A DNA stretch of 23,896 bases, counting the filler, from an uncultured virus (IMG/VR IMGVR_UViG_2124908030_000002) (taxonomy: Duplodnaviria > Heunggongvirae > Uroviricota > Caudoviricetes > Thumleimavirales > Hafunaviridae). It is 4 parts of one record of this genome, joined end to end, with 100 filler letters (N's around TTAATTAATTAA, not from the genome) between each part and the next. Parts side by side here need not be neighbours in the genome. Positions count along the whole stretch, not along the records: positions 2,890 to 22,705 come from IMGVR_UViG_2124908030_000002; 3 more parts are not named here. One strand, written 5' to 3'. This document shows positions 6,195 to 23,475 of this stretch, one piece after another. Position 1 is the first letter of the stretch. Every line of letters begins with the position of its first letter. A program made the position numbers and the translations under genes. Below the pieces are notes generated by a model that searched no databases, was not told the origin of the DNA, and saw only the letters and a list, made by a program, of their open reading frames with translations.

Positions 6195-6221
6195 ACTGTC
6201 TTGCTCTTGTGATTCCCATTA

Positions 6222-7535: not shown

Positions 7536-7555
7536 NNNNNNNNNNNNNNNNNNNN

Positions 7556-8289: not shown

Positions 8290-8330
8290 GGTGTGTCTCG
8301 TTTTATATCATGGCGTCGAGGTGACGCTGA

Positions 8331-8371
8331 AAGGGCGGAGAGGAATCGAACCTCTCGGAACCACTCACCCT
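8331..8371 (-). ncRNA. mini-tRNA (t-element) 1
   Basis: AGGGUG-AGUGGUUCC-GAGAGG(UUCGAUU)CCUCUC-CGCCCU: 6-bp acceptor plus 6-bp T-stem with canonical T-loop; no D or anticodon arm. Confidence 0.8.
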
Positions 8372-8391
8372 AACATTCAAAGCCCTACGCC

Positions 8392-9171: not shown

Positions 9172-9182
9172 TTTTGTGAATC

Positions 9183-9605
9183 CTACTGCGCGTTTATCCA
9201 GTCACTATACGTCGGGAACTTGTCTTCAAACCGCTCCTGATACGACTCGTTCAGGGCATGAATCTCGTCCAGTTCGTCACTCGACCAGCGGCCCGATTCG
9301 AGGGCCGGCCCTCGGTGGTGGAGGTGAGGCCACCCTGTCACGATGACTCGGTGTCCGTCTTCGTGGAAGCCGGCAACAAGGTAGTAGGCAACCCCCTTGC
9401 CCCATACCTTCCGGAAGCAAGCACACCCATCTCCGTTGTCACGGAGGTCGCCGTGATTGATGGTTTCCCTGATAACTTCCGGGGTCAGGTATCGCTCCGG
9501 TTCCTTCATCCGCTGAATGAAGTGTCGGAGTGGTGTGTAGAGTTGCGGCTGTTGTGGGTAATCGATGTCTCGGTACTCCCGGCTCCGGTCGATGGGAAGG
9601 TTCAT
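9183..9605 (-). CDS. DUF4258-like protein
   Basis: HFIQRMKE..RYLTPEVIRETINHG and HRVIVTGW. Confidence 0.55.
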   Translation of the reverse strand: MNLPIDRSREYRDIDYPQQPQLYTPLRHFIQRMKEPERYLTPEVIRETINHGDLRDNGDGCACFRKVWGKGVAYYLVAGFHEDGHRVIVTGWPHLHHRGPALESGRWSSDELDEIHALNESYQERFEDKFPTYSDWINAQ

Positions 9606-9614
9606 GGCATCATC

Positions 9615-9878
9615 TTAGTCCTGCGAGATGACCGTCGCTCCGGGGTCGAACATGGCTCGTCCGATGAGGAACTGCGCGACCTTATAGCCGTCAACTTCTC
9701 CGGGGGAGAAGTAAACGAGAGAGTCAACGCTCTTGACTGTCCCGTCGTCGTACTCAATCCTCGCAACTTCCGGCGTCTCCTTCAGCTCCGTGTTCGGATT
9801 GTTTGAAGGAGAAGTCGTGTCGATGTGGACCGTAGACCGGGTGTCGTACCACATCGAGAGGTGACTGACTTCAGCCAT
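9615..9878 (-). CDS. hypothetical protein (87 aa)
   Basis: Acidic ORF with TGATG overlap. Confidence 0.7.
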   Translation of the reverse strand: MAEVSHLSMWYDTRSTVHIDTTSPSNNPNTELKETPEVARIEYDDGTVKSVDSLVYFSPGEVDGYKVAQFLIGRAMFDPGATVISQD

Positions 9879-10390
9879 CAGTTGGCACCTCCCACATAAT
9901 GGGAAACTGAACTTTGGGCAATCCCAAGGACGTTACTAATCTCGGTCTGAGGTAGGTCTTCGTTGTGGTAAAGTTCCATCATCAATAGCTCGTCGGTGAA
10001 GGTCGTTTTCTTTTGATGGTGCGCCCGGTGTTCACCCTCTCCCATCAGCTTGATGTTCGAGGGGCGGTTGTCCCACGGAAGCTCGTTCTGGTGGTGAACA
10101 TCTTTGCCCACTACTGCGTCGAACCCAAACTCACAGACCGCAAGAAGCCTGTGGTGGAAAAAATGGCTGCCGTCAACGTTGAACATCTCGTACCCATCAC
10201 TACTGACATGAAGGGACGGGTGGCCGTACTGGTTGCGAGCAGCTTCCTTCGGACTGCGGGTTTCGACCCCTGCGTCAGCCATCCACCGGGCAACGGTCTT
10301 GCTGACCACATCGCATTTTTCACCGATTTCTGCTTGTGTCATCCCTTCGTCATGGTACAGCCGACGAAGCTCCGACTCTTCAAGAGGCAT
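9878..10390 (-). CDS. HNH homing-type endonuclease with flanking HTH motifs
   Basis: HHRLLA...DVHHQNELPWDNRPSNI...EHRAHH; HTH-like segments at both ends (MTQAEIGEKCDV; LPQTEISNVLGIAQSSVS). Confidence 0.88.
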   Translation of the reverse strand: MPLEESELRRLYHDEGMTQAEIGEKCDVVSKTVARWMADAGVETRSPKEAARNQYGHPSLHVSSDGYEMFNVDGSHFFHHRLLAVCEFGFDAVVGKDVHHQNELPWDNRPSNIKLMGEGEHRAHHQKKTTFTDELLMMELYHNEDLPQTEISNVLGIAQSSVSHYVGGAN

Positions 10391-10521
10391 TACTCTTCAC
10401 CCCCCTGTCGCCAACTCACCGCTGAGTAGAATCTACCCATTATAGCACCGAGGTCGTCAGTTTCGTATGTTTGGCGCAACGTCTCAACGTGTCCGTCATC
10501 GCTAAATTCTACTGATTCCAT
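10390..10521 (-). CDS. hypothetical protein (43 aa)
   Basis: MESVEFSDDG...; TAATG overlap with the HNH gene; first ATG after hammerhead B. Confidence 0.6.
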   Translation of the reverse strand: MESVEFSDDGHVETLRQTYETDDLGAIMGRFYSAVSWRQGGEE

Positions 10522-10538
10522 GATGTCTTTGGTCTGAA

Positions 10539-10606
10539 CGGTCTGGCTCGTCAGGGAGATGGCGACCAGCACACCTCCGACGAGGGGCGACCCCTCGTTT
10601 CGCCGT
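10539..10606 (-). ncRNA. type II hammerhead ribozyme B
   Basis: GGC-GAAA-CGAGGGG(UCG)CCCCUCG-UC^-GGAGGUG(UGCUGGUCGC)CAUCUCC-CUGACGA-GCC-AGACCG; predicted cut at 10579/10578. Confidence 0.92.
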
Positions 10607-10631
10607 TGACTTGAAGCTCGGGCTTTGAGTC

Positions 10632-11546
10632 CTAGTCCTGAATCTCAGCCTCGATACTGTCGCGGTTCTCACCGATAACCCGGCGCGTCTCCTGAGCTAT
10701 CGGGGCAGAGTTGGCTGCGTCCTCGATGTCTTCTCGTAGGTAGAAGAACTCCTGAATGGCTTCTACGGCTTCGTCACCAGCGAGGGCCGGGGCGGAGACA
10801 CCATGCTCGTCAGCCACCGTCGAGATGGCTGAGAGGACGGTGCTACCGTCGCTGAACAGGGTCCAGACACGCTGAAGAACATCGGGGGAGACACGGGACA
10901 GAGCATCGAAGTCGTCACCGTGGAACACATCTGCTGCGATGTAGGGGAAGAAGTCCATCAGCATGGCCAGCTCGTTCACTCCGCAGTGACAATAGGGGCA
11001 GAAGTCCATCTGGTCGGCGAAGGCATCGGTCACGTCGAAGCCGGCTCGGATGTCGTGCTTGTGGTCAGGGTGGGAGTGACCGAGGCCGCACTCTTCAACC
11101 GGACACTCGAACCGGGAGACTCGGGTGTCGCTGACAACGGAACGAGCATCCTGAAGCACGTCCATCACGTCGTCGTCAATCTCCGAGTCGATGTCACCCA
11201 TGACCCCATCGATGGAGTCCACGAGGTTCTGGCTGTTCTCGGACTGAAGCGCGCTGTGGCTGCCGAGCGTCCACATCGAACCCACGGTGTCGAAGCTGTT
11301 GGTGTCGTCCTGTGCGTCGTCGTCGGCGGCGATGAAGTCGTAGTTCATGTTGGTGGTGTCGTCGTCGCTGTCTTCCGCACTGTTCTCGTCGTGTCTCGTT
11401 CTGAAGACTGTTTCTGAAAGGTAATGTCGCTCCTCGATGGAGTAGGCCACGTTGTTTGACCGAAGGGCGGCGGCCACCTCTTTGTGGTCAAACACGTCAA
11501 TCAACTCACCAGTATGCCGGTTAACTACCTTGTATTCCGTTGGCAT
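10632..11546 (-). CDS. acidic Cys/His-rich hypothetical protein (304 aa)
   Basis: CPVEECGLGHSHPDHKH and CPYCHC clusters. Confidence 0.8.
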   Translation of the reverse strand: MPTEYKVVNRHTGELIDVFDHKEVAAALRSNNVAYSIEERHYLSETVFRTRHDENSAEDSDDDTTNMNYDFIAADDDAQDDTNSFDTVGSMWTLGSHSALQSENSQNLVDSIDGVMGDIDSEIDDDVMDVLQDARSVVSDTRVSRFECPVEECGLGHSHPDHKHDIRAGFDVTDAFADQMDFCPYCHCGVNELAMLMDFFPYIAADVFHGDDFDALSRVSPDVLQRVWTLFSDGSTVLSAISTVADEHGVSAPALAGDEAVEAIQEFFYLREDIEDAANSAPIAQETRRVIGENRDSIEAEIQD

Positions 11547-11592
11547 GGGTTGTGTCCCGTCACTTGTATCGTTGCGCCACGGGGGGCGCTGA

Positions 11593-11634
11593 TGGCTAGG
11601 AGAGGAATCGAACCCCTCGCTGCCCTGTCTAGCT
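11593..11634 (-). ncRNA. mini-tRNA (t-element) 2
   Basis: AGCUAG-ACAGGGCAGC-GAGGGG(UUCGAUU)CCUCUC-CUAGCC-A; acceptor stem covaries relative to element 1. Confidence 0.8.
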
Positions 11635-11662
11635 AAAGACTAGAGGCCGAGTCACTTAAGTC

Positions 11663-11902
11663 TTATTTATTACGCCGGAGCTTAATCCGTTCCGGAATAT
11701 CTTTCTCGACTTTTTTCGGCTTTACTACGACGTGCCAACCTCCAATTAGAAGGCGTTGTCTTTCTCCGCCCTGCCACTCAAGCCCGTCGTTTTGGAACAG
11801 GTGTTCACCGGCCCGCTTCGCTTGTTCTTTGGTCGCAAAGATGTGATTATAACGTACTCTGTGCTTTCCGTCTTCTTTGTAGGTAAGTTCCCAAAGTTCC
11901 AT
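11663..11902 (-). CDS. hypothetical basic protein (79 aa)
   Basis: MELWELTYKE...; ATG 2 nt after the upstream stop. Confidence 0.7.
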   Translation of the reverse strand: MELWELTYKEDGKHRVRYNHIFATKEQAKRAGEHLFQNDGLEWQGGERQRLLIGGWHVVVKPKKVEKDIPERIKLRRNK

Positions 11903-11904
11903 GT

Positions 11905-12594
11905 TTAGCTCCTGTCCGGGGTGTTCTCGACAAGCCAGACGGCCTTGCCGATGAACTTCATCTCCTTGTTGGTGAGCCGGTAGCTCTCTCCGTTTGTGGT
12001 AATGTCTCTGTCCATGTCTTCGGTCAGGGTGGCGGCCCGAAGGCCGTAGGCTTGAACCGAAGACCCCTCGGCGACGACGCCGTTGCCTTGTCGCTTCCGG
12101 CTGTCGGTACTCGGGTGGTAGATTTCTGCCTCGAACGTCAGCAGAACGTGACCGTTGATGAGCCACCCGTCGTCTCTGACTTCGACCCGCTCCGATAAGG
12201 CCTCGGCGAAGATGTCCAGCACATCTCCACGGACCATGCCGGCTCTGATGTCGTCGTAGAGGGTGACGAGCGCCTTCACGGTGTCACCATCATGTTCCTC
12301 GTACATCTTTGCCATAGCTTCCACCAAGTCCGTCTTGTGGTGTTCCCCGAGGGTCAGGTCGGGGCAGTCTTCAAGCCGGAGAGTGTAGCACTCCGACTCC
12401 GGGTCGGGGATGATGGTAACGTCTTTCTCCCCGTCAACGCTCTTCATCCATATCTCGTCGCCGTATTCCAGAAGCCCGAACAGGTCGTGACCGTAGAGCA
12501 GCTGGTTCAGGTCCGAACACTTTGTCTTCGTCTCGGTTCCACCGTCAGGTGTGGCTATGAGCCACGAGGTCGGTGTCTCGTCTATTACGTTCAT
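11905..12594 (-). CDS. hypothetical protein (229 aa)
   Basis: Acidic ORF starting MNVIDET with ATGA overlap. Confidence 0.8.
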   Translation of the reverse strand: MNVIDETPTSWLIATPDGGTETKTKCSDLNQLLYGHDLFGLLEYGDEIWMKSVDGEKDVTIIPDPESECYTLRLEDCPDLTLGEHHKTDLVEAMAKMYEEHDGDTVKALVTLYDDIRAGMVRGDVLDIFAEALSERVEVRDDGWLINGHVLLTFEAEIYHPSTDSRKRQGNGVVAEGSSVQAYGLRAATLTEDMDRDITTNGESYRLTNKEMKFIGKAVWLVENTPDRS

Positions 12595-12782
12595 CGTGTT
12601 ACTGACTTGTCGTTGAGGTCGCGCTTCTTCCAGTTTCCACCGCACTTCTGGCAGTTATACGTCTTCTTCCGTTCGTGTCTGTAGACCTGACTGTCGCACT
12701 CCGGGCAAGTGAACCGCCACGGCTCGTCGGGGTCAGGCTTGCTGTCGAAGGCCGTCCGGGTGATTTCTTTAGAGGAAGTCAC
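12591..12782 (-). CDS. small zinc-ribbon protein (CPxCG-like)
   Basis: CPECDS...YNCQKCGG. Confidence 0.8.
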   Translation of the reverse strand: MTSSKEITRTAFDSKPDPDEPWRFTCPECDSQVYRHERKKTYNCQKCGGNWKKRDLNDKSVTR

Positions 12783-15573
12783 GACACTCCTCCTTTGTCA
12801 GCTCTGATGGGTCGATGCCTTTCTCGTGGAAGCCGAGAAGCATCTGGCCTGTCCATGTATCTCGGCGGTGGTTATCATCGAACAAATCGTACACGTCGCT
12901 GTCGTCATCCCAATTTGGGGTGTCAGCCATCAGCCGGTAGCGTTTCGAGCTGCCTTCCAGATGACCATCTTTGAGCGACGGCTTGTGGTTGGGACTGTAG
13001 CGAGTCAACCGTGCGATGATGATGCTTGCCTGATGTATCCTTGACCCCACACCGTCCGTCTTGATGTTCTTGAAGGCCCACCGCGCTCTTTTCAGCACTT
13101 TGTCACAGACAACAGCGAAGAGGGTGTCGTGCTTGTCGTCGTCGGGAACGTTGCCTTTGTCGTCGCTACGGTAGCCGCCGTCGTAGTCATCGAGTAGTTT
13201 GGCCCACTCAATCTGGTCACGGAAGTCTTCGGCGTAGAAGTTCCGGAGCTTTTCAAAGTCATCTCCGAGCAGCTTCACTACTTCGCGGTCATCACTCGGC
13301 CGGTGAGCCATAACCACCATCCGGTCGTCGTCGTACAGCTCTTCAGGAGTCATGGCACCGTCTTCTGTGGCTATTAGTGCTGACGAGGACCACTCGGTGT
13401 ATTCCATGTAAGTGACTACATCATCATAGTCTTCAAGCTCGGACAGTTGAGACTTTGTGACGCAGACAATAGCGGCGTAGTATGCCATGTCGTAGTGGTC
13501 GCTGATGTTCGGGCCGTCGCCCTGAGTGAAGACCATCAACGTGTCTTTGCCGTGGAAGTTGCCGTGCCCTTCCAGCTTTCGCTTCACCTCTTTCATGGTG
13601 AGCCGCTGGTCGATGGAGCTACTATCGGAGCTGGTGCGGAGCTTCAGCTTGTCCGGGTCTTTCTTCTTCGTTGTCTTCGTGTGCTTCTGGTGGATGTCGT
13701 TCGGAACATCCCAACTGTGGTCGTCGTCCTGCTTGACAGGAACGTTCTTCACGACGTTGAAACCGAAGGCATCACCCCAAGCATCGTACTTGCTGGCACC
13801 GTTGATTTTGATTACCTCTGCGTCAGGGTTGTTGTGGCGAAGGACTTTGAAGCGGTCGGTGAAGTTACCGCCTGTCGAAGCTGCCATGTAGACGTTATCG
13901 CAGTCTTCTATGTCTGTCAGGAACGCCCCTAGTCTCTTACTCTTCCGGTTCCGACTGCTGCTAGACCGACCGGGGCCGTTGTAGCAGTACTCAATTTCTG
14001 AGAACAGAGCGTACATCTGGTTCAGAGTATCGTCAGATGTTACGTCGAAGTGGTCGTCGCCTGAGATGAAGTTACGGAACTTCCTTCGTTTTTCTGTCGC
14101 CTTGTACGGGCCGTGCTTTGACACCATCTTCGAGAAGATTTTCCACGAGCTTCTGTCACCGATAAGGGCGCTGCCGGGGTGACTGCCCGACTTCATCTCT
14201 TCTACGACAGCCCGGAGCTGTTTCTTCTCTTCTTCGATGGCCAACGACTGAACGTACTCGAAGAACTGTTTCTGCTCGGAGTCTTTCTTCAGGCTGTCAC
14301 GGGAGCCGGTAGGCTGCGGGAGCATCACGTCGTCGTCGTGTAGCTCCCCGATGACGTTGTTTTTCTCGTTCGTCTCGAAGAGTCGCTGTCCGTCAGAGTA
14401 CCGGCCCCGGTTCGGCCCGTGAACAATCCGGCCTTGTTCGTCCTGAATCTGAATCACTTCGTCCCACAGGGTGCTGAACCGGACTGATGTGTTCCGGTCA
14501 ATAGCCATCGACACCATGAAGGTGTCTTCGTCGTCGGCATGGTAGCCGGTGTCAATAACATCAGGACCGGAGACGAGGGAAAACTCACCGGGACGCTCAA
14601 CCACAATCGGTGGGTCGCCGTACTCTTCAACGAAGTTGCTGGCCTCGTACTCTTCTTCGACCGGGGTGGTCCCGGCGTCGTGTTCTCGGTAGAGAAGCGG
14701 GACACGAAGTTGCTCGGTGTAGTCTTCGACCCATGACTGAAGCTTCGAGAGACTGAACGAATCTTGAACCGGCATCGAGAACCGGGTGCCGTAGAAGTTT
14801 TCTTCTACCTCACCACAGAGTGCGTTAGCACCACCGAGGTAGGAGTAAGCCCGGAAGCCGGGGTGGTCGCCGGGCTGCCGGCTTCGGGTGTCAATTTCTG
14901 CTCCGGCTCCATGCTTGCCGTGAACTAGGGCCGACGACTCTGAACCGATACCGAACATCCCACCGGAGCCGCCGTCAACACCGGAGCCGGACTGGAAGAT
15001 GGTGTTGAAGGCGTCGTCAAACTGTGCCGGGGTCATGCCGATGCCGTTGTCTTCGGTGACTATCTTCCGCTCATCGAGGTACACATCCCACACTATCGTC
15101 GGGTCGTAACCGAGGTTCCGTGAAGCTTCAAGGACTTCATCGATGGGCCGGGGAATCTCTATCCGGCGGAAGTCTGACGGGTCGCTGTCGCCATCATCGA
15201 GCGCGTTCTCGGCGACAGTCTCCCCGGTTTCAGCATCGACCAGAAGGCTCTGTGTGAGCCACCCGTCGTCGTACCGTTCGGAGAGCTGAATCAGGAGCTT
15301 CGAGGCTCGGAAGCAGGCAGCTTCCTCGTTCTGAAGCCACTCTCGAACCCATGCCGAGTCATGCTCGTAGATGAAGTCAGACAGGAACTCTCCGGCACCG
15401 CTCTCTGTCTGTGTCTTCAGGGCTTCGTCACCCGTCTCTTGAACGAGAGGGTGGTCTTCGCCAGCCACACCGAGCTGCTTCACGTCGTTGGTGTCGGGGC
15501 CTGAAAGGACAGGGGGAACGGAAGGGTCACGGCTCTGTTCGTCGGTCGTCGGAAGGTCGATGTTCTCACTCAT
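12769..15573 (-). CDS. GHKL (Hsp90/MutL-type) ATPase-domain protein, rIIA-like architecture
   Basis: Bergerat-fold motifs REWLQN, EDNGIGM, GGMFGIG and GTRF in the N-terminal third, followed by a long unassigned C-terminal region. Confidence 0.85.
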   Translation of the reverse strand: MSENIDLPTTDEQSRDPSVPPVLSGPDTNDVKQLGVAGEDHPLVQETGDEALKTQTESGAGEFLSDFIYEHDSAWVREWLQNEEAACFRASKLLIQLSERYDDGWLTQSLLVDAETGETVAENALDDGDSDPSDFRRIEIPRPIDEVLEASRNLGYDPTIVWDVYLDERKIVTEDNGIGMTPAQFDDAFNTIFQSGSGVDGGSGGMFGIGSESSALVHGKHGAGAEIDTRSRQPGDHPGFRAYSYLGGANALCGEVEENFYGTRFSMPVQDSFSLSKLQSWVEDYTEQLRVPLLYREHDAGTTPVEEEYEASNFVEEYGDPPIVVERPGEFSLVSGPDVIDTGYHADDEDTFMVSMAIDRNTSVRFSTLWDEVIQIQDEQGRIVHGPNRGRYSDGQRLFETNEKNNVIGELHDDDVMLPQPTGSRDSLKKDSEQKQFFEYVQSLAIEEEKKQLRAVVEEMKSGSHPGSALIGDRSSWKIFSKMVSKHGPYKATEKRRKFRNFISGDDHFDVTSDDTLNQMYALFSEIEYCYNGPGRSSSSRNRKSKRLGAFLTDIEDCDNVYMAASTGGNFTDRFKVLRHNNPDAEVIKINGASKYDAWGDAFGFNVVKNVPVKQDDDHSWDVPNDIHQKHTKTTKKKDPDKLKLRTSSDSSSIDQRLTMKEVKRKLEGHGNFHGKDTLMVFTQGDGPNISDHYDMAYYAAIVCVTKSQLSELEDYDDVVTYMEYTEWSSSALIATEDGAMTPEELYDDDRMVVMAHRPSDDREVVKLLGDDFEKLRNFYAEDFRDQIEWAKLLDDYDGGYRSDDKGNVPDDDKHDTLFAVVCDKVLKRARWAFKNIKTDGVGSRIHQASIIIARLTRYSPNHKPSLKDGHLEGSSKRYRLMADTPNWDDDSDVYDLFDDNHRRDTWTGQMLLGFHEKGIDPSELTKEECRDFL

Positions 15574-15713
15574 CTGAGGTCAACAAGGTCGGTTGTTTTC
15601 ATGTCGCTGCTGATGAAGGCTCTCGGGTTGCCTTCTTCCTGAACGCTGTATCTGCTCGAATACTCACTCCACGTTACTTGTGGGGACAGCTCTGGTGGGT
15701 TCTCTTCGTTCAT
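15570..15713 (-). CDS. hypothetical protein (47 aa)
   Basis: MNEENPPELSPQVTWSEY...; ATGA overlaps at both ends; conserved in copy 2. Confidence 0.7.
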   Translation of the reverse strand: MNEENPPELSPQVTWSEYSSRYSVQEEGNPRAFISSDMKTTDLVDLR

Positions 15714-16232
15714 ATTCCGTAGTCTATCGCCGGGTTGTCTTCTATACACCGTCTTGTGNNNNNNNNNNNNNNNNNNNNNNNNNNNNNNNNNNNNNNNNNN
15801 NNNNNNNNNNNNNNNNNNNNNNNNNNNNNNNNNNNNNNNNNNNNNNNNNNNNNNNNNNNNNNNNNNNNNNNNNNNNNNNNNNNNNNNNNNNNNNNNNNNN
15901 NNNNNNNNNNNNNNNNNNNNNNNNNNNNNNNNNNNNNNNNNNNNNNNNNNNNNNNNNNNNNNNNNNNNNNNNNNNNNNNNNNNNNNNNNNNNNNNNNNNN
16001 NNNNNNNNNNNNNNNNNNNNNNNNNNNNNNNNNNNNNNNNNNNNNNNNNNNNNNNNNNNNNNNNNNNNNNNNNNNNNNNNNNNNNNNNNNNNNNNNNNNN
16101 NNNNNNNNNNNNNNNNNNNNNNNNNNNNNNNNNNNNNNNNNNNNNNNNNNNNNNNNNNNNNNNNNNNNNNNNNNNNNNNNNNNNNNNNNNNNNNNNNNNN
16201 NNNNNNNNNNNNNNNNNNNNNNNNNNNNNNNN

Positions 16233-16903
16233 CCCGGAGCCATGCTTGCCGTGAACGAGGGCTGCGACTCTGAGCAGACACCGAACATCCCACCGGAGCC
16301 ACCGTCAACACCGGAGCCAGAGCTGAAGATGGTGTTGAAGGCTTCGTCAAACTCACGAGGAGTCATGCCGATGCCGTTGTCTTCGGTGACTATCTTCCGC
16401 TCATCGAGGTACACATCCCACACTATCGTCGGGTCGTAACCGAGGTTTCGTGAGGCTTCGAGGACTTCATCGATGGGCCGGGGAATCTCTATCTGGCGGA
16501 AGTCTGACGGGTCGCTGTCGCCATCATCGAGCGCGTTCTCGGCGACAGTCTCCCCGGTTTCAGCATCGACCAGAAGGCTCTGTGTGAGCCACCCGTCGTC
16601 GTACCTCTCGGAGAGCTGAATCAGGAGCTTCGAGGCTCGGAAGCAAGCAGATTCCTCGTTCTGAAGCCACTCTCGAACCCATGCCGAGTCATGCTCGTAG
16701 ATGAAGTCAGCCAGAAACTCTCCGGCACCGCTCTCTGTCTGAGTCTTCAGGGCTTCGTCACCCGTCTCTTGAACGAGGGGGTGGTCTTCGCCAGCCACAC
16801 CGAGCTGCTTCACGTCGTTGGTGTCGGGGCCTGAAAGGACTGGGGGAGCGGAATGGTCACGGCTCTGTTCGTCGGTCGTCGGAAGGTCGATGTTCTCACT
16901 CAT
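16233..16903 (-). CDS. GHKL ATPase protein, second variant (3' part in gap)
   Basis: Near-identical to 14903-15573 (offset 1330), with synonymous and a few non-synonymous changes. Confidence 0.85.
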
Positions 16904-17040
16904 CTGAGGTCAACAAGGTCGGTTGTTTTCATGTCGCTGCTGATGAAGGCTCTCGGGTTGCCTTCCTCCTGAACGCTGTATCTGCTCGAATACTCACTCC
17001 ACGTTACTTGTGGGGACAACTCTGGGGTTTCTTCTGTCAT
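16900..17040 (-). CDS. hypothetical protein (46 aa; variant of 15570-15713)
   Basis: MTEETPELSPQVTWSEY...; its ATG lies in the 3' tail of hammerhead C. Confidence 0.7.
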   Translation of the reverse strand: MTEETPELSPQVTWSEYSSRYSVQEEGNPRAFISSDMKTTDLVDLR

Positions 17041-17097
17041 GCTCATCAGGGAAGGGACGACACTCCCTCCCGACAGGGCCGGTCCCTGTTTCGCCAT
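17035..17097 (-). ncRNA. type II hammerhead ribozyme C
   Basis: AUGGC-GAAA-CAGGG(ACCGG)CCCUG-UC^-GGGAGGGA(GUGUCG)UCCCUUCC-CUGAUGA-GC-AUGACA; predicted cut at 17072/17071. Confidence 0.92.
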
Positions 17098-17181
17098 TTA
17101 GGGACTTTTCCCCATTATGACATACTTTTCTTCGTTTTCTTCCATCACTTCCTTTGAAAGTCTAAGAAATCTCTTGTTCAT
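17098..17181 (-). CDS. putative 27-aa peptide
   Basis: MNKRFLRLSKEVMEENEEKYVIMGKSP*; TGATG overlap upstream; stop directly abuts hammerhead C. Confidence 0.45.
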   Translation of the reverse strand: MNKRFLRLSKEVMEENEEKYVIMGKSP

Positions 17182-17690
17182 CAAATCCCTAACGCTGAAG
17201 CCTGCTCTTCTTCATCTACGACCCACTCTTCATCTTCCACATCGAGAACCCGGCCAGTCTCGAAGACAACTTCAGTCTCGTCTCGGACTTCGGTGATGCC
17301 GTAGATGCTTTCTTCTTCACCTTTGATGTAGGTCTTAAGTGAAGTAACATCAAGACTTTCATCACAACTCGGAGTGGTACACTTTGCCCGGCCTTTGGCG
17401 TAGCAACTGGTGTCGTTGATAAGAAGCCCCGACCTCGTTCTGATGGCCTCGATGTGACGGTAGTGCTTCAGCTTCCCTCTGCCATCAGGGTACTGAAGCC
17501 CGACGAGGTTCTTCGTTGAGGTGTAGAGCTTCACCGCATCCCCTGAAGTTGAGTGAGTTGGAAGGGCACCGTCTCCCCATTTCCGAGCAACTTCAGGTTG
17601 GTTCCCTGTTGCGCTGCTTACTTCATGATACACATCTGCCGGGTACTCTTCACCGTTCTCTGCTTGAATCGTACTTTGTTGTAGACTCAT
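17181..17690 (-). CDS. hypothetical protein (169 aa)
   Basis: Acidic ORF preceded by GGAGG. Confidence 0.8.
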   Translation of the reverse strand: MSLQQSTIQAENGEEYPADVYHEVSSATGNQPEVARKWGDGALPTHSTSGDAVKLYTSTKNLVGLQYPDGRGKLKHYRHIEAIRTRSGLLINDTSCYAKGRAKCTTPSCDESLDVTSLKTYIKGEEESIYGITEVRDETEVVFETGRVLDVEDEEWVVDEEEQASALGI

Positions 17691-17901
17691 CGTAGCCTCC
17701 GTATAACATCAGCAACTACCAACACTATCCTTTCAACCATAGTAGGGACGAGGGGGTTCTCGGTTTCAGCTTCTTCATTAACCGCATTAGGTTCATCCCT
17801 ATTGCTGTTATGTTGTATATATTATTACAACTATTGTTTGAACTACCATCGTCTATACTACCTTCTGTTTCCGTATCGATGAAGTCGTATGAATCGTTCA
17901 T
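17687..17901 (-). pseudogene. small AT-rich gene with a 2-nt frameshift in an (AT)n run
   Basis: Removing one AT near 17820 gives a 70-aa acidic ORF with ATGA overlaps at both ends. Confidence 0.55.
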
Positions 17902-18116
17902 TTTTCCACCAGAAGAACAAACTCTCCTTGGGTGCTGGCATGGGACTTTCCGGCCCACTTGAAATCATCCCTGAAGTGTTCAAGCCACGTCACTCTGATG
18001 TGCTGGACTCCGTTGTATGGGGCCGGAATGACGTAGTAGTCGATACCGGGAATGTCGGACTCTCTAACCGCAGCGATACCATCGAACTGTCGTAGTTCTT
18101 CAACAGGCTCACTCAT
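17898..18116 (-). CDS. hypothetical protein (72 aa)
   Basis: MSEPVEELR...; coupled start. Confidence 0.7.
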   Translation of the reverse strand: MSEPVEELRQFDGIAAVRESDIPGIDYYVIPAPYNGVQHIRVTWLEHFRDDFKWAGKSHASTQGEFVLLVEK

Positions 18117-18285
18117 TTTCTTCAGCCTCCTCTGCCGCAATCTCCACCAGCTCCTTCAGTTCATCCTGAGCATCTTCGAGCCGCTGAAGCTCTTCTCGTG
18201 GAAGGGAGTTCCACAAGATGGACAGCCCTTCGATGTATTCGTTCCACCGTTCTTCAAATTCTTCGCGGTTATCTGCTTGGGGCAT
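18109..18285 (-). CDS. hypothetical acidic helical protein (58 aa)
   Basis: MPQADNREE...; TAATG overlap. Confidence 0.7.
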   Translation of the reverse strand: MPQADNREEFEERWNEYIEGLSILWNSLPREELQRLEDAQDELKELVEIAAEEAEENE

Positions 18286-18806
18286 TAGAATCCTTCTCCG
18301 TCGATGTTTGCCATCCGCTGCGACTCTGTTTGCCACTCGCTCCGTGACTGAACCATCCTACTTCCTCCGTTAATGTTAGTGAAGGTGAAGGTCAGGGCCT
18401 CCATGTTAGTTTCTTCATCGTCCATCATCGGCCCTCCGTCAGCTTCTCCCCAAGCAATCTTTATGCCGTTCTCGTCTCCGGTAAGGCTGAACAGCTCCGC
18501 GAAAGCCATGAAGTTTGATGCTTCAGTCCACGTCAGGAAGAAGTGGTCGATGCCCACACTTCGCCGGTCCTTTGTTGTCTTCGTCATACGAACACCGTAG
18601 ATGGTGGTCTTGACTCTGGCGTTGACGTTTTCCTCGGGGTTCTCGGGTTCAACCGAGAAGTAGCAGCGAAGCGTCTGGTTCTCTGCGTCGTGAACCAGAT
18701 GGATGTAGTCACCGACGCCCTCTGATTCGAGGTTGACCCACTCACTAAGCGGGACTCTATCTACTACGTTATGCCCGTCGTCTTCGGCGTTCATGGTTTC
18801 ACTCAT
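18285..18806 (-). CDS. hypothetical protein (173 aa)
   Basis: MSETMNAED...; first gene after orphan RNA motif copy 1. Confidence 0.8.
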   Translation of the reverse strand: MSETMNAEDDGHNVVDRVPLSEWVNLESEGVGDYIHLVHDAENQTLRCYFSVEPENPEENVNARVKTTIYGVRMTKTTKDRRSVGIDHFFLTWTEASNFMAFAELFSLTGDENGIKIAWGEADGGPMMDDEETNMEALTFTFTNINGGSRMVQSRSEWQTESQRMANIDGEGF

Positions 18807-18825
18807 GGTTTCTCCGTTCCGCTGT

Positions 18826-18882
18826 CGCACCGCAGAGGGTAGTTCGGTCATGAGCCGAGGGGTCGTCAACCACCTACCCTAA
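18826..18882 (-). ncRNA. unassigned repeated structured RNA motif, copy 1
   Basis: AGGGUAG-GUGG(UUGACGA)CCC-CUCGG(CUCAUGA)CCGAA-CUACCCU-CUGCGGUGCG; homologous to 20712-20769. Confidence 0.7.
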
Positions 18883-18900
18883 CAATAGAAGCCTGTTGAC

Positions 18901-19086
18901 TTAACTCTTTGCTATCGCCTCGGAGGGGAACGCCGACCAGACCGCCGAGTTGGGGGCCTCGACCACCTTCCCGGTGTCTTTCAGTCGGATTTCGTAGTCT
19001 CTGCCGGACGACACGACCTCTCCCTCATGGGTCCCATCACCGGGAAGGTCAACGTAACAGAAGTCACCCTCTACGGGTCGAATCAT
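18901..19086 (-). CDS. small beta-rich hypothetical protein (61 aa)
   Basis: ATGA overlap and GGAGG upstream. Confidence 0.7.
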   Translation of the reverse strand: MIRPVEGDFCYVDLPGDGTHEGEVVSSGRDYEIRLKDTGKVVEAPNSAVWSAFPSEAIAKS

Positions 19087-19277
19087 CGTCGCCGCCCTCC
19101 CTTCAGCTCGTTGTCGTCGCCTAGCTCACAGTTAGAACAGATGAAGGCATCCAGTCCGTGGTCGTAGACATGGACCGTTCGGCCCCTACATCTTCGGCAC
19201 TCTCGCCGCTTCTCTTTGTGCTTCGGTGACTTGTCGAGTCGGTTCCGTCGTGTGACTTCAGGTCCTTCGTAGCTCAT
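19083..19277 (-). CDS. small basic zinc-ribbon protein (64 aa)
   Basis: CRRC...CSNC; ATGA overlap. Confidence 0.7.
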   Translation of the reverse strand: MSYEGPEVTRRNRLDKSPKHKEKRRECRRCRGRTVHVYDHGLDAFICSNCELGDDNELKGGRRR

Positions 19278-19861
19278 AGTTTTTCGCTGTAACAGCTTGC
19301 TCCGCAGCACTTCGACTGGTATCGCTCTGCCTTCTTCACCATCTTCGACCGCTTCATCTTGCCAGCAACCTTCTGGTCGCACCCTGAACAGAAGATTCCG
19401 TACTTGTGTTCCGTGAACTGCTGGCAGTTGACGGTGGTGTCTGCCTTCTCTGCCATCCGCTTGAAGCCTTCACCGTGGTCGCCTTCTCCGGTTTCCTGAT
19501 ACTGCCTGATGTGGATTAGCTCATGCCGGATGGTGCTTCGCATCTTATCCGACCATCCCCACTTCTCATAGGCTCTGTAAGCGAACCTGACGAAGTATTT
19601 CGTCGCCGTTGAACGCTTCATGCCGGCCTTCCCTGCGGCTCGCTTCAGCTGGCTGGACTGCTCGAAGGTCACGGTATCAAGCTCCACCGGCTTCAGGACT
19701 TCGTAGTTCTTGATGGCCCACTCAGCATACTCACGGCAGGCCACCCTGAACTGGTTCGGAGCCAGCTCGTCGCAGAAGGTGGGACACCCGGAACGCCCCG
19801 TGTCTTCATCCTTCTCTTCTTCAGGCCTCGCTGCTTCGAGGAATCGTTCGAGGTCTTCCAT
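19274..19861 (-). CDS. SprT-like zinc metalloprotease
   Basis: TIRHELIH (HExxH), GDHGEGFK, upstream RAAGKAG and C-terminal CSGC...KCCG. Confidence 0.85.
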   Translation of the reverse strand: MEDLERFLEAARPEEEKDEDTGRSGCPTFCDELAPNQFRVACREYAEWAIKNYEVLKPVELDTVTFEQSSQLKRAAGKAGMKRSTATKYFVRFAYRAYEKWGWSDKMRSTIRHELIHIRQYQETGEGDHGEGFKRMAEKADTTVNCQQFTEHKYGIFCSGCDQKVAGKMKRSKMVKKAERYQSKCCGASCYSEKL

Positions 19862-20073
19862 CAGATGTTCTTCGGGATACCATGAGCATCATACATCCCG
19901 TTGTCTTCGGCGTGTTCATCGTTCGGCCGGTTCTCGTTGTCCGGCTCGGGGCGGTCCACTTTGCCATGACGCCGTTCGAGGGTCTGGCCTGTGGTTCCCT
20001 CTCGTTGTGCTGTATCGACTTCATACTGCCAGAAGTCTCCGTTGTTCGTGAGGTCTTCGGGGTTGTCAGGCAT
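19861..20073 (-). CDS. hypothetical protein (70 aa)
   Basis: Acidic ORF with TGATG overlap. Confidence 0.7.
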   Translation of the reverse strand: MPDNPEDLTNNGDFWQYEVDTAQREGTTGQTLERRHGKVDRPEPDNENRPNDEHAEDNGMYDAHGIPKNI

Positions 20074-20074
20074 C

Positions 20075-20242
20075 TTAGTGTTGGCTGGCAGGTCGTTCTT
20101 CAGTTGGGACTCTGCTGAACTCGTCTCCGCCGCAGTCGGGGCACTCTAGGCTGATGTGACCACCGGGCATCCTCAGTTCGACCATCTCGTCACTTGTAAG
20201 GTCGATGCGACACTTCCGGCAGTTGAATAGGTTTTCACTCAT
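20075..20242 (-). CDS. CPxCG zinc-finger protein (55 aa)
   Basis: CRKC...CPDCGG. Confidence 0.8.
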   Translation of the reverse strand: MSENLFNCRKCRIDLTSDEMVELRMPGGHISLECPDCGGDEFSRVPTEERPASQH

Positions 20243-20399
20243 CTTCAGTAACTCCCGCGAACTTCGTTCTCTCACAGTCGGGGCACTTGTGGCGACCCTG
20301 ACTCTCGGTTAGTTCGACCAGCGTAGTGTCGTCAATCGGTCCTTCCCAACCACAGGGGATACACCGAACGACTAGGGTAGGGGCTTCGTCACTCATCAT
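20235..20399 (-). CDS. zinc-finger protein (54 aa, not in ORF track)
   Basis: MMSDEAPTLVVRCIPCGWEG...HKCPDCER...DE*; GAGGTG upstream. Confidence 0.75.
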   Translation of the reverse strand: MMSDEAPTLVVRCIPCGWEGPIDDTTLVELTESQGRHKCPDCERTKFAGVTEDE

Positions 20400-20499
20400 C
20401 GTTCTCCACCTCGTTCCCCCACTTCGTTTCGTCCCGCTTCTCCTGAAGTTCTCGCTCCTGTACCTCTTCGATGATGTCTTCGATGGTGTCTCCGTTCAT
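20389..20499 (-). CDS. small acidic protein (36 aa, not in ORF track)
   Basis: MNGDTIEDIIEEVQERELQEKRDETKWGNEVENDDE*; coupled at both ends. Confidence 0.65.
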   Translation of the reverse strand: MNGDTIEDIIEEVQERELQEKRDETKWGNEVENDDE

Positions 20500-20690
20500 G
20501 CTTCGTGGCTGAAGGTCGCCTTCTCTGAAGCCGTTACTGCCTTCGTCTCGTCTTCAGCTGCCGGGTCAGGACCGCCGAAGTCGGTGTTCGTGGAAGAAAA
20601 TTCGTCTTGTACCGAGAAGGCCGGGTCTTCCTCGTCCCGGTCATCGATGGGCTTCGCTACCGACAGGTCTTGCCGCCGTAGTTTTGACAT
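20496..20690 (-). CDS. hypothetical protein (64 aa)
   Basis: Strong Shine-Dalgarno-like GAGGTGA 6 nt upstream. Confidence 0.7.
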   Translation of the reverse strand: MSKLRRQDLSVAKPIDDRDEEDPAFSVQDEFSSTNTDFGGPDPAAEDETKAVTASEKATFSHEA

Positions 20691-20711
20691 TTCGTGTCAC
20701 CTCGAAGTCGC

Positions 20712-20769
20712 CGCACCGCAAGGGGTGATTCGGTCATGAGCCGAAGGGGTCGTTAGCCCTTCACCCTAA
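20712..20769 (-). ncRNA. unassigned repeated structured RNA motif, copy 2
   Basis: AGGGUGA-AGGG(CUAACGA)CCCC-UUCGG(CUCAUGA)CCGAA-UCACCCC-UUGCGGUGCG; closing stem covaries with copy 1. Confidence 0.7.
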
Positions 20770-20802
20770 GAGTCGATGCCTGAAGCCAAGAGTCTTACGA
20801 CT

Positions 20803-21996
20803 CTACAGCTGTTCGGCGGCTTCGGTGTAGCTGTCAGCCTTCCCACTTTCGACCCGGTACTGAACGCCCTGCTTCTCAAGGTCGCTGAGGCCGTAGGCTG
20901 CCACTATCTCTTCGAGAGTGGCGTCTTCGACACTCTTCTCGGTGTCGTCGTCGTCGGACTCTTGTGGTGTCGAAGTGTCGGCTTCGTCGGCTTCGTCGTC
21001 ACCATCTTCGGCTCTGATGCGCTGTTCGAGCCGTTCGGTGATGCTTCGGTCATCCTGAGCTTCCTCGGCCTGAAGGAGCTGACGGAGGGTTCGGACTCTG
21101 GTGATGTCGGTCAAGACACCCTTCACGTCTTTGACGGAGTGCTTCGAGATGAGGGTCGGGTCGCCACAAAGGACCTCCCGAAGCTCATCTTCCTCCATCG
21201 ACTTGCCGTAGTCGTTCTGGCTGTCGTCGGTGTCTTCGGTGTCGTCGTCGGCCTCTGACTCTTCGGTGTCGGAGGGGTTCTCGGTGTCAGGACCGAGGGT
21301 CGGAGTCCCCTGAAGCTCACCGTTCTTCTTACAGAAGGTGGCGTTCTCTATGTCCATCTCTTCGAGCATCTTCCCCATCTCCAACACTTCGTCGCCATCT
21401 TCAACGAGGAGAGGGAAGCTCTCACCGTTGAAGCAGGGGATGACAGGACCAACTATGTCCCTGAAGACCCCGAGGTTGCTAATGTCGATGCCCTGAGCTT
21501 CAAGCTCATCAACCTCATCTTCGGAGAGGGTTCGATGCTCGAAGGCCGGAAGGTCGGAGAATACGTCGAGGTAGGGAACATGGTTCACGTCGTCGTTGTC
21601 GTAGGGCTTCGGTGGGCTGTGGTCGGTGTCCCACCCCATGCCGTAGCCTTCGTTGAGGCTACCCTGTCGGTCGCCGAAGGTTGACTTCGCCAGCCGGTAG
21701 AGAAGGTCTAGCTTCTCCTGCTGGGTGGGGTTCGAGGCTTCTTCGACCAGCTCGGGGAAGTCGTCGAGGTCGCTGTTGTAGCGGTCGAAGCCATCGAAGA
21801 CATCGTAGAAGGCTCTGTCACCGAGGGCTTCGGTGATGGCGGTGACGAGGGGTGCGGTGTCGCCGAAGATGGCGTATCCTTCGGTGGACTCGTTCGGCTC
21901 GAAGGGGATGCCCCCTTCGTCGTTGTCGCTGCTGCTGGTGGTGGTGGTGTCGTTGCTACTCGAAGCTGCCGCCGAGAACGCTTTGTCGAAATTCAT
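20803..21996 (-). CDS. very acidic hypothetical protein (397 aa)
   Basis: Long ORF with D/E/T-rich linkers; first gene of the minus-strand run. Confidence 0.85.
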   Translation of the reverse strand: MNFDKAFSAAASSSNDTTTTSSSDNDEGGIPFEPNESTEGYAIFGDTAPLVTAITEALGDRAFYDVFDGFDRYNSDLDDFPELVEEASNPTQQEKLDLLYRLAKSTFGDRQGSLNEGYGMGWDTDHSPPKPYDNDDVNHVPYLDVFSDLPAFEHRTLSEDEVDELEAQGIDISNLGVFRDIVGPVIPCFNGESFPLLVEDGDEVLEMGKMLEEMDIENATFCKKNGELQGTPTLGPDTENPSDTEESEADDDTEDTDDSQNDYGKSMEEDELREVLCGDPTLISKHSVKDVKGVLTDITRVRTLRQLLQAEEAQDDRSITERLEQRIRAEDGDDEADEADTSTPQESDDDDTEKSVEDATLEEIVAAYGLSDLEKQGVQYRVESGKADSYTEAAEQL

Positions 21997-22008
21997 CGTT
22001 GTTCAGTT

Positions 22009-22705
22009 GTTACTCACTTCGCAGAGTAACCTCTCGCCTCTTCTACGCTCCTGAAGAGGGAAGGAGCCGGGGGTCGAAGGGGTTATAAATGGCTTCGACC
22101 CTAACCGGCAAAGCAAACTTCTGGCCTTTGCTATCGGTTGCGTTTCGTCATCACCGTAAGGACTGAAGCAGACTTCGGCTCCTCTCTCACTTCCTTTGTA
22201 GTCCGGAAGACCGATGAGAGACAGACTGAAACCCTGTAAGTCCCGTTCCGCCAGTTGTGTTGGTCGAAGGAGGTGAAACTCGCTAACTCTACTACCGAGG
22301 ATTCGAGGACTCTTCGACATTACCCGTAACTCCACCTCGTCGGGACATCCTTCGCAGGACCCCTAAGTGACGAAAGCTTCAACGTCCGGTTTTCCGTGGC
22401 GATTTTGGCTCTGAAACGGTGGTATCATGACCCTTTGCGTCGGTCGGTCTTCGTGGACTATCGAAGGGTTCAGGGTATGTCCCCTCCGAAACGTCACATC
22501 TGGTCTAGCACCGAACCCTCACAGCTGTTCGGTGCCGCTGTACCGCCGAAGGTTTTCAATAGAACCTTCAGCTGGCCTTTCCCTTAGCGACCCGACCCTT
22601 CCACCTTTGAGGGTTTCTGGCCGGTTACGATGGGGTCCATAATGGGGTAGTCACCTCTACCGAGGTGAACCCGCGATTCCGTTACCGAAGCGTTCGACTC
22701 TGCTT
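22009..22705 (+). ncRNA. candidate large structured non-coding RNA, part 1
   Basis: No credible ORF; more than 10 local and long-range nested helices with G-U pairs on the + strand. Confidence 0.5.
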
Positions 22706-22749
22706 NNNNNNNNNNNNNNNNNNNNNNNNNNNNNNNNNNNNNNNNNNNN

Positions 22750-22761
22750 TTAATTAATTAA
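22750..22761. other. artificial contig linker TTAATTAATTAA
   Basis: Six-frame stop linker flanked by N runs. Confidence 0.97.
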
Positions 22762-22805
22762 NNNNNNNNNNNNNNNNNNNNNNNNNNNNNNNNNNNNNNN
22801 NNNNN

Positions 22806-23475
22806 GCCCGTTGTCACCGTCCCATTTTTGCCCTTCTTACCACAGGCAAGGTCCGAAGACCAGCCGTGTACCGAAGGGCTACCATTTCCTTCGGGGTCCG
22901 AAACACCCCGAAGAGACATCGTGCGAGGGCCGAAAGCCCCCAAAGGCCCCCCACACCCCACAAAAGGGGGAGGGGACCAACCCCCCACACCTCACGACGC
23001 TGCGCCGCGTGTGTGCGAGATTGATGCCGACCGCGAGCGAGCCTGTTTAGACAGTATCCCCGGAACCATATAAACTCGTCGCTATCAGCAACTTGTCTGA
23101 GACTGCCGATTTGCCGGGGTAGGAGGCCAGATACGCCGATATAGTGGTTTTGCCGGAGTTGATAAGTGAGAGTAATAAACCGGCAACAAATGTAGCTACC
23201 CATAGCAAATCAGGACCCAAATCTCTAATCGTCGGTGACAGGACCAGTACCGACCGATTACAGCATCTGAGAGTCAATTCCTTTATACCGTGGTATCTCC
23301 GATTTTCCGGCGGTTGGTAATGTCTCTCACACCGGGTAAATCGGGGGGTCCTTCGCGCGCAGGAATCCCTTCGCTTCAAAGAAATTCCCGCGCGCGAAGG
23401 GGTTCCCCCCTTCTAATGCTGATACCGGGAAGGGCGGGGTGATTCAACCCCTTTAGAAGTGACTAGCCCTTCGTA
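22806..23475 (+). ncRNA. candidate large structured non-coding RNA or structured DNA region, part 2
   Basis: No credible ORF; dense nested inverted repeats. Confidence 0.4.

Follow-up and report, generated by a model that had tools for sequence, protein, structure and literature searches.

A three-way-junction RNA between the genes of haloarchaeal tailed viruses, a candidate tRNA-like cutting signal

Introduction

Transcripts of the haloarchaeal virus HF2 reach up to ~35 kb, Northern blots show species of 0.5-9 kb, and in the cited part of their report the authors suggest processing (PMC8707807). In Haloferax, tRNA-like t-elements are cut by RNase P and tRNase Z, as stated in the cited part of PMC4326828. 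Variant hammerhead ribozymes of type II (HHphage; Rfam RF02276) lie near a mapped 5' end in HF1 and HF2, and the cited part of the same report describes saltern hammerheads with altered cores (PMC3088659). Here we analyse a stretch of 23,896 nucleotides, filler included (the window), from the uncultured virus IMGVR_UViG_2124908030_000002, a haloarchaeal tailed virus of the HF1/HF2 kind. Between its genes stand two copies of an RNA three-way junction (3WJ), in which a closing stem (P1) encloses a small hairpin (P2) and a second hairpin (P3). A first description, made from the sequence only (the sequence-only reading), had offered a new self-cleaving RNA, a nuclease target or a Met-tRNA mimic as explanations.

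Relatives carry either hammerheads or small cassettes of an acceptor-like stem and a T arm (mini-tRNAs) in the same gaps; hence the 3WJ copies most likely mark sites where long viral messages are cut. Judged from its sequence and fold, the 3WJ may be a diverged tRNA-like element, a top-half mimic of the t-element type, that would mark polycistronic viral RNA for cutting by RNase P and tRNase Z. We give this reading a probability of roughly 0.42. No description of the motif was found in the accessible text of the literature searched.

Results

Two copies of the three-way junction and their relatives

Both copies are intergenic and are encoded on the minus strand, as are the genes around them. 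Including the UUA start and the tail they run from 18882 to 18826 (copy 1) and from 20769 to 20712 (copy 2), which bears out the two ~57-nt intergenic copies of the sequence-only reading at the same positions, on the minus strand. They are identical at 50 of 66 aligned columns, and an indel of 1 nt falls in a junction. Their parts are as follows:

18836..18880, minus strand: copy 1, from its sequence, pair counts and 89.3 bits with the covariance model R1
18880-18874 with 18842-18836, minus strand: P1 of copy 1, 7 bp
18872-18870 with 18862-18860, minus strand: P2 of copy 1, loop UUGACGA, with a U.C mismatch
18858-18855 with 18847-18844, minus strand: P3 of copy 1, loop CUCAUGA
18826..18835, minus strand: tail of copy 1, CUGCGGUGCG, followed by a GGAG resembling a Shine-Dalgarno (SD) sequence and an ATG at 18806
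20722..20767, minus strand: copy 2, from its sequence and 92.5 bits with R1; orthologous to the copy in the related genome G003
20767-20761 with 20728-20722, minus strand: P1 of copy 2, a terminal A.C and 6 bp
20759-20757 with 20749-20747, minus strand: P2 of copy 2, loop CUAACGA
20745-20741 with 20733-20729, minus strand: P3 of copy 2, 5 bp, loop CUCAUGA
20712..20721, minus strand: tail of copy 2, UUGCGGUGCG, followed by SD-like GAGGUGA and an ATG at 20690

The model R1 was built from these two copies, and its next-best match in the window is one of the mini-tRNAs (mini-tRNA 1, 12.4 bits). The string TTAGGGTRR occurs three times in the window, always on the minus strand (copies 1 and 2 and mini-tRNA 1), against an expectation of 0.30; one of 100 shuffles reached three. 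The tail motif UGCGGUG is not enriched in the window (5 matches at up to one mismatch, 5.16 expected). The motif had been taken for unassigned from the start, and the Rfam 15 search run on the window placed no family on either copy, its sole match being a type II hammerhead at 17033-17096. Stretches of 131 nt around three copies (window and G003) likewise gave nothing meaningful with Rfam at E<=10.

The sequence collections (IMG/VR, metagenome contigs and genome contigs) were scanned by exact patterns only. These scans yielded one true relative, IMGVR_UViG_3300019927_000017 (G003), all other matches being due to chance. G003, a genome of 71,444 bp that has terminal repeats, is collinear with the window and encodes a portal 70% identical to that of the window. 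Its single 3WJ (1069 to 1003; 28.2 bits, E 1e-5 with the two-copy model) stands between orthologues of the genes around window copy 2 (31% and 35% amino acid identity). The exact 14-mer of the second hairpin matched at least 120 loci in IMG/VR, all by chance and in unrelated contexts. Among longer exact patterns in IMG/VR one matched no locus, one gave three chance matches in coding DNA and one found only G003; the pattern specific to G003 there had one chance match each in the metagenome contigs and the genome contigs, both in bacterial DNA of 71-72% GC. Protein-guided locus searches of IMG/VR found nothing with SprT and only G003 with a 169-aa protein and with the HSP90-like protein. Searches against phages, by blastn with the motif and by tblastn with the 169-aa protein, gave no match, and four other IMG/VR relatives, fragments of 4-20 kb, had no 3WJ match.

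Mincapvirus isolates were reached through the HSP90-like gene. HSTV-2 has two intergenic matches (21.4 bits, E 2.5e-4), and five Mincapvirus records were searched (HSTV-2, HRTV-7, HCTV-6, HRTV-2 and HRTV-11). Site 1 is found in all five; site 2 scores 18.7-21.4 bits in four, while HRTV-11 gives a partial match of 13.3 bits with the sequence visibly present. A third match of 18.5-21 bits, drawable as a three-way junction, recurs in all five genomes (HSTV-2 44334-44398, plus strand); examined in HSTV-2, it lies antisense inside the coding sequence HSTV2_67 and was rejected as probably spurious. Because this match scores similarly, the threshold of the model is soft, and 21 bits alone are no proof. 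Sites 1 and 2 were accepted because they are intergenic, lie on the coding strand, have the loop UUCACGA of G003 and tails of the mini-tRNA-cassette type, and occupy orthologous gaps. A plus-strand match in G003 (809-879, 18.9 bits) lies opposite an open reading frame (ORF) and was set aside. Model searches of HF2, HRTV-25, HRTV-27, HVTV-1, HCTV-1 and HGTV-1 returned nothing convincing (best 13.9 bits).

Covariation of the stems

The alignment used for covariation holds five distinct sequences from three virus lineages and was fitted to the model, which favours structure. Over these sequences 92.1% of cells are paired, and 10 of 16 pairs change on both sides (P1 5/7, P3 3/5, P2 2/4), compensatory changes that support the three-way junction. 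None of 500 shuffles reached the observed pairing, and slid partners gave at most three such pairs and at most 52.9% paired cells. The swap between GGGUAG/CUACCC and GGGUGA/UCACCC in the closing stem, pointed out in the sequence-only reading, is real and is extended by the P1 stems of G003 (GCC(C)GG/CCGGC) and HSTV-2 (ACGCAGU/ACUGCGU and AGGCGU/ACGCCU). P1 is thus distinct in each lineage and has 5-7 bp in all five sequences, as an acceptor-like closing stem in a mimic of a tRNA top half would, and the P3 stem shifts from UCGG/CCGA to CGGGG/CCCCG. In every sequence P1 and P3 add up to 12 positions, joined by 0-1 nt of junction strand and closed by a loop of 7 nt; the 7+5 geometry of a tRNA top half proposed earlier is therefore present in all five, and P1 would be expected to stack coaxially on P3. 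The small hairpin P2 is placed where the D arm of a tRNA would be, and there is no anticodon arm.

Junction strands measure 0-2 nt and vary; conservation among the unpaired bases is confined to the loop of P3 (YUCAYGA) and to a GA in that of P2. Two elements once called invariant have proved variable: the loop CUCAUGA reads UUCACGA in all relatives, and the tail UGCGGUG is kept only in the window copies and G003 and is absent in Mincapvirus. A pseudoknot between GUG of the tail and CAY of the loop, of only 3-4 bp, was dropped for the same absence of the tail, as was a kissing loop through the palindrome TCATGA, relatives having TCACGA. Minimum free energies are no better than those of shuffles (z -0.03 and -0.36), so the support for the structure is comparative, not thermodynamic.

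These free energies, the loss of the T-loop consensus and the weak first hairpin of copy 1 would all suit a mini-tRNA or hammerhead cassette in decay, a relic that serves no function itself. We consider this improbable, as P1, P3 and P2 have changed in a compensatory manner across three lineages, copy 2 and the G003 copy are still alignable (71 bits) although the flanking proteins are only 31% and 35% identical, and sites 1 and 2 are kept in all five Mincapvirus genomes. The P3 loop also bears on the Met-tRNA mimic of the sequence-only reading, an anticodon stem-loop that would decoy or recruit a reader of CAU anticodon loops. P3 has the matching form, its stem being of 5 bp and its loop of the type Y-U-NNN-G-A; both window copies have CAU as the triplet, and a presumed phage tRNA (L040), matched by chance, has the same 14-mer at the position of its anticodon arm. 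However, the triplet is CAC in G003 and at both Mincapvirus sites, that is in three of the five distinct sequences, and P3 would stack on P1 in the place of the T arm, not of the anticodon arm, which leaves such mimicry very unlikely.

Exchange with hammerheads and mini-tRNAs in orthologous gaps

The features and neighbouring genes that bear on the comparison of gaps are these:

17033..17096, minus strand: type II hammerhead ribozyme (RF02276, 38.4 bits against a gathering score of 37), upstream of the copies of the HSP90-like gene
G003, L137 10627-10691, L137 8653-8716 and L136 19791-19854, minus strand: hammerhead-like elements of type II, in which the core is complete and one additional U precedes stem II, after the CUGANGA box
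8332..8371, minus strand: mini-tRNA 1, acceptor-like stem and T arm with the loop UUCGAUU, same box and UUAGGGU start; the orthologous gap of HSTV-2 holds a 3WJ
11595..11633, minus strand: mini-tRNA 2, P1 GCUAG/CUAGC and T arm with the loop UUCGAUU; the orthologous gap of HSTV-2 holds a 3WJ
18285..18806, minus strand: ORF downstream of copy 1, 173 aa, no family; its G003 orthologue follows a hammerhead-like element (tblastn 39% over 166 aa, E 8e-31)
18901..19086, minus strand: ORF upstream of copy 1, 61 aa; its G003 orthologue precedes the hammerhead-like element (blastp 49%, E 1e-14)
20496..20690, minus strand: 64-aa ORF downstream of copy 2, whose orthologue comes after the G003 copy (blastp 35%, E 3e-7)
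20803..21996, minus strand: very acidic 397-aa ORF upstream of copy 2, whose orthologue comes before the G003 copy (blastp 31% over 372 aa, E 2e-28)

The 173-aa ORF has neither a Pfam nor a PHROG match. The elements of G003 were accepted as hammerhead-like because they have the full core, the minimum free energy folds of the two that were folded (HH-a and HH-b) give the three-stem shape of a hammerhead, and they covary with the hammerhead of the window. All three align with the latter, with 7 of 13 pairs compensated, and one of them is its positional orthologue. Rfam misses all three at the gathering score and, in the stretch searched at E<=1, both of the two present.

In G003 the gap equivalent to that of window copy 1 is occupied by a hammerhead-like element, both flanking ORFs being orthologous; the earlier description of the motif as standing in the same position as the ribozymes is thus strictly true. 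Site 1 of HSTV-2 lies between orthologues of window 11905-12645 (44% amino acid identity, E 3e-49) and window 10632-11546 (37%, E 1e-39), where the window has mini-tRNA 2, and site 2 immediately precedes the orthologue of window 7525-8289 (52%, E 2e-79), where the window has mini-tRNA 1. As orthologous gaps hold a hammerhead-like element, a mini-tRNA or a 3WJ, the three types of module replace one another.

The position alone might recommend a ribozyme. Several ribozyme classes were reportedly found through such association with gene contexts (Weinberg et al. 2015); pistol and hatchet ribozymes were among the yields of this "guilt by association". We therefore weighed a new class of small self-cleaving ribozyme, or a minimal one derived from the hammerhead, that would be active in the high salt and Mg2+ of the haloarchaeal cytoplasm. 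Such a ribozyme, with the type II hammerhead as its possible ancestor, would take the same part as hammerheads and mini-tRNAs in the operon "punctuation" of archaeal viruses and could be exchanged for them. With the type II hammerhead of HF1 and HF2, as described in the cited part of PMC3088659, the 3WJ has in common three helices around one junction, an open helix formed from the two ends and intergenic slots within halovirus operons. A stretch of stem III and the sequence UC|GG are also common to both, ACGACCCC(C)UCGG recurring at stem III and the cleavage site of a G003 hammerhead-like element. The P3 loop (18854-18848 and 20740-20734, CUCAUGA) is one position off the hammerhead box of the window (17047-17041, CUGAUGA), with C for G5, and that of G003 two positions off the box there (UUCACGA, CUGACGA), a resemblance that may be chance or common descent; altered cores are known from saltern hammerheads (PMC3088659, cited part).

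The junction itself, in contrast to that of a hammerhead, lacks the CUGANGA and GAAA core strands, the only CUGANGA-like heptamer being the P3 loop. Strands of 0-2 nt that vary offer no obvious active-site pocket, and the P2 loop varies in length and sequence. The Rfam models of hammerhead, twister, twister-sister, pistol, hatchet and HDV-like ribozymes do not match the motif at E<=10, whether in the window or in the 131-nt stretches around three copies, in agreement with the first impression that none of them fits, and threading of hammerhead and HDV-like topologies by hand failed, the latter since both hairpins lie inside P1. Moreover, the closest kin in sequence are mini-tRNAs, not ribozymes. 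The new self-cleaving RNA of the sequence-only reading therefore keeps its hammerhead slot, but as an explanation it is doubtful.

Kinship with the mini-tRNA cassettes

Mini-tRNA cassettes number two in the window, two in G003 and one in HSTV-2. Those of the window consist of a promoter-like box, an acceptor-like stem, a linker of 7-10 nt, a canonical T arm and a tail that includes a small GC hairpin; both ARAGORN and Rfam, run on the window, miss them. They share with the 3WJ a box at the fixed spacing of 27 nt, the start and the types of tail, as well as the 12-position helix and orthologous gaps. Even the linkers begin alike, with GUGGUU in copy 1 and mini-tRNA 1 and with GGGUGAA(A)GGGC in copy 2 and a G003 mini-tRNA, and the P3 stem of G003 is identical to a T-arm stem of the same genome. 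A 3WJ model of all five sequences finds the mini-tRNAs weakly, at 20.8, 17.9 (mini-tRNA 1) and 14.2 bits. The two differ in that the T loop of the mini-tRNAs is canonical (UUCGAUU, UUCGACU or UUCGAGU) and their linker unstructured, whereas the loop of the 3WJ is not a T loop and its linker is folded as P2. By sequence comparison, the 3WJ looks like a mini-tRNA whose linker has turned into a hairpin and whose T loop has drifted.

A promoter-like box in front of the cassettes

Upstream of the cassettes stands a promoter-like box of about 30 nt, which, like the probable UUA|G initiator that ends it, the sequence-only reading had missed:

18879..18909, minus strand: promoter-like box of copy 1, with AAGAG, TTAAG at -25..-21 and TTA|G, and enclosing the TAA stop of the ORF upstream
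20766..20796, minus strand: promoter-like box of copy 2, with AAGAC and TTA|G and without TTAAG; a hairpin AGAGUC-GUAA-GACUCU overlaps the box and the upstream stop codon
8370-8400 and 11636-11665, minus strand: promoter-like boxes of mini-tRNA 1 and mini-tRNA 2, from the nhmmer profile or pattern

The pattern AAGA[CG]-N22-TTAG is found at three cassettes of the window (copies 1 and 2 and mini-tRNA 1), at three of G003 (two mini-tRNAs and the 3WJ) and at one evident chance match. An nhmmer profile of the box adds mini-tRNA 2, more sites in G003 and the HF2 repeat IR2 (E 0.005), and matches both strands. Members of this family (AAGACTTAA...AGTCTTAG) are palindromic with the fixed spacing and occupy at least 11 sites in G003, where the arms form a perfect inverted repeat of 6 bp, a hint that a dimeric regulator binds there. 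The complementarity of AAGACU and AGUCUU was also considered as an RNA helix and dropped, being perfect in G003 and at mini-tRNA 2 of the window and degenerate at three other sites of the window. With a spacer fixed in length and variable in sequence, and a profile matching both strands, it looks like a feature of the DNA.

The class I repeats of HF2 have been shown by experiment to be promoters, with a TATA motif from -26 and initiation at the G of the gamma motif (PMC8707807, cited part). The 30-nt flank of the window copies resembles them in AAAGACTTA, TTAAGTC and TTAG(A/G)GTGAG. In HF2 IR4 the initiating G was counted as the one following TTA, and copy 1 and mini-tRNA 1 have TTAAG at -25..-21 from the G of TTAG, the register of that repeat. 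CTTAA or GTTAA in the HF2 register occurs at copy 1, mini-tRNA 1 and two G003 cassettes, not at copy 2 or its G003 orthologue, and the window box is ~15 nt shorter than that of HF2. The leaders of HF2 examined hold no such junction, and the homology concerns the flank, not the RNA motif. Because of this homology we read UUA|G as an initiator, so that in the window P1 would begin at the first base of the transcript. The UUAGGGU start common to the 3WJ and mini-tRNA 1, which the sequence-only reading had counted as part of the RNA, is indeed seen in both, but its leading UUA most likely belongs to the initiator and lies outside the RNA.

No box stands upstream of the Mincapvirus sites. In HSTV-2 the stop codon of the gene before it marks the start of site 1, whereas a small unannotated ORF with two CxxC pairs (L152 ~14125-14215) overlaps site 2 and ends within the 5' part of this second 3WJ. 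For lack of a box, the Mincapvirus 3WJ is taken to be internal to a longer transcript, and the RNA to work independently of the promoter.

The predicted start raises the question of whether the 3WJ is simply a structured leader that stays uncleaved, at or near the 5' end of the mRNA in the window virus, where it would stabilise the message against 5' exonucleases or offer a protein site that tunes translation of the next gene. With P1 at the start predicted from the homology to HF2 class I repeats (PMC8707807, cited part), the 5' end would lie in a helix. Among unpaired bases conservation is highest in the two hairpin loops (YUCAYGA, and GA in P2), as would be expected of a protein site, and an SD-like sequence and start codon follow within 11-30 nt. 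Against such a role, the Mincapvirus copies lie within transcripts, no candidate binding protein has been identified, and the exchange with hammerhead-like and T-arm modules in orthologous gaps argues for a common cutting function. A leader of this kind seems to us possible, though rather unlikely.

At the level of DNA, finally, the motif could be an operator or palindrome bound by a regulator and not an RNA at all. TCGG-N7-CCGA is an inverted repeat, the window copies contain the palindrome TCATGA, and the box AAGACT...AGTCTT is itself palindromic in DNA, with a profile that matches both strands. Yet the box lies upstream of the motif proper, the indel falls within a junction, and the stems change in sequence while staying complementary. 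Had only the palindrome been kept without covariation, as the sequence-only reading foresaw for an operator, the case would be different; the homologues covary, and with UUCACGA they have lost it. For these two reasons the operator reading is largely refuted and can hardly be maintained.

Two further observations concern the surroundings of the boxes. The sequence GGGACACAACC is conserved 0-9 nt before the start codons of genes that follow cassettes (window 11560-11545; cassettes of G003 and HSTV-2, L152 ~5630, 11385, 12440 and 14280) and likewise at several boxes without an RNA module. In HF2, real tRNA genes lie ~30-90 nt after IR2 and IR3 (L139 4367-4584 and 6656-6898), and an RtcB RNA ligase is encoded by this virus; the succession of promoter repeat and tRNA-shaped RNA may thus be old in the family.

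The source virus and the window

The proteins of the window are acidic, its portal is 57% identical to the portals of Haloferacalesvirus isolates, and it encodes an HSP90-like protein, a dCTP deaminase and SprT. Its genes from ~3.3 to 22.3 kb lie on the minus strand. Several runs of N interrupt it: pairs of 44 N with 12 bases between them (1112-1155/1168-1211, 2790-2833/2846-2889 and 22706-22749/22762-22805), a run of 474 N (15759-16232) and two of 20 N (6290-6309 and 7536-7555). The 20-N gaps are bordered by near-exact duplications (5130-5429 equals 6310-6609 at 100%; 5917-6032 resembles 7420-7535 at 98%), and the 474-N run has a copy of the start of the HSP90-like gene on either side (14935-15234 and 16265-16564, 94%). 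Runs and duplications look like scaffolding or masking. Relative to G003, the window (347-2746 versus 4989-22959) has the terminase/portal block (8-12 kb in G003) joined straight to a block that spans the termini of G003 (58 kb through the end to 3 kb), which reflects either a different permutation or a scaffold join at the N runs.

Discussion

Under the reading that we favour, host tRNA-processing endonucleases would recognise the shape formed by P1 and P3. RNase P would cut 5' of P1 where the element is read through from upstream, and tRNase Z would cut one nucleotide after P1. Between them, the two cuts would separate the cistrons of long viral transcripts or shorten the leader of the mRNA that follows, the same outcome as is expected of the hammerhead-like and mini-tRNA modules in equivalent gaps. 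The window virus and G003 have the promoter-like box, and by homology to HF2 transcription would begin at the first G of P1, which would leave only the 3' cut to be made there.

The haloarchaeal t-elements, such as that upstream of the 5S rRNA of Haloferax volcanii, are likewise small tRNA-like folds within longer transcripts; the 3WJ differs from them in being viral, in its YUCAYGA loop, which is not a T loop, and in its extra small hairpin. The nuclease target of the sequence-only reading is thus the explanation that we prefer, given the kinship with the mini-tRNA cassettes and the replacement of mini-tRNAs in Mincapvirus gaps, but the P3 loop is not what it would lead one to expect. Of that first interpretation as a whole, a structured RNA without an Rfam family, its ribozyme-slot position and its 7+5 geometry have stood, whereas CAU mimicry and the invariance of loop and tail have not.

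Several points weigh against a tRNA-like signal. With U or C as its fifth base, the P3 loop (CUCAUGA or UUCACGA) departs from the T-loop consensus UUCRANN; ARAGORN finds 0 tRNA genes in the window, and the Rfam tRNA model RF00005 does not match the 3WJ at E<=10 in the 131-nt stretches. P2 is weak, with 78.9% of cells paired, the mismatch in copy 1 and a loop of 5-8 nt. There are only five distinct 3WJ sequences, and the Mincapvirus copies score just 21.4 bits, so that, with a similar-scoring third match that looks spurious, their assignment rests on context. The t-elements are taken to have an acceptor-like stem stacked on a hairpin, an architecture in which the 3WJ would resemble them. The mini-tRNAs themselves are presumed substrates of RNase P and tRNase Z, and cleavage of the 3WJ is a prediction for every copy.

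The 3WJ is an unannotated RNA family with a modest chance of being categorically new. It is present in cultured isolates (HSTV-2, HRTV-7 and others) and hence directly testable at the bench. If it were to cut itself, it would be a new ribozyme class found by guilt by association; if it is cut by RNase P and tRNase Z, it would illustrate the extent to which a tRNA mimic may depart from the T-loop rule. In these haloarchaeal viruses the genes of long operons appear to be separated by interchangeable RNA modules, namely hammerheads, mini-tRNAs and the 3WJ, a use that resembles the tRNA punctuation of mitochondrial transcripts. Such modules could explain how viruses of the HF2 type make very long transcripts yet short mRNAs.

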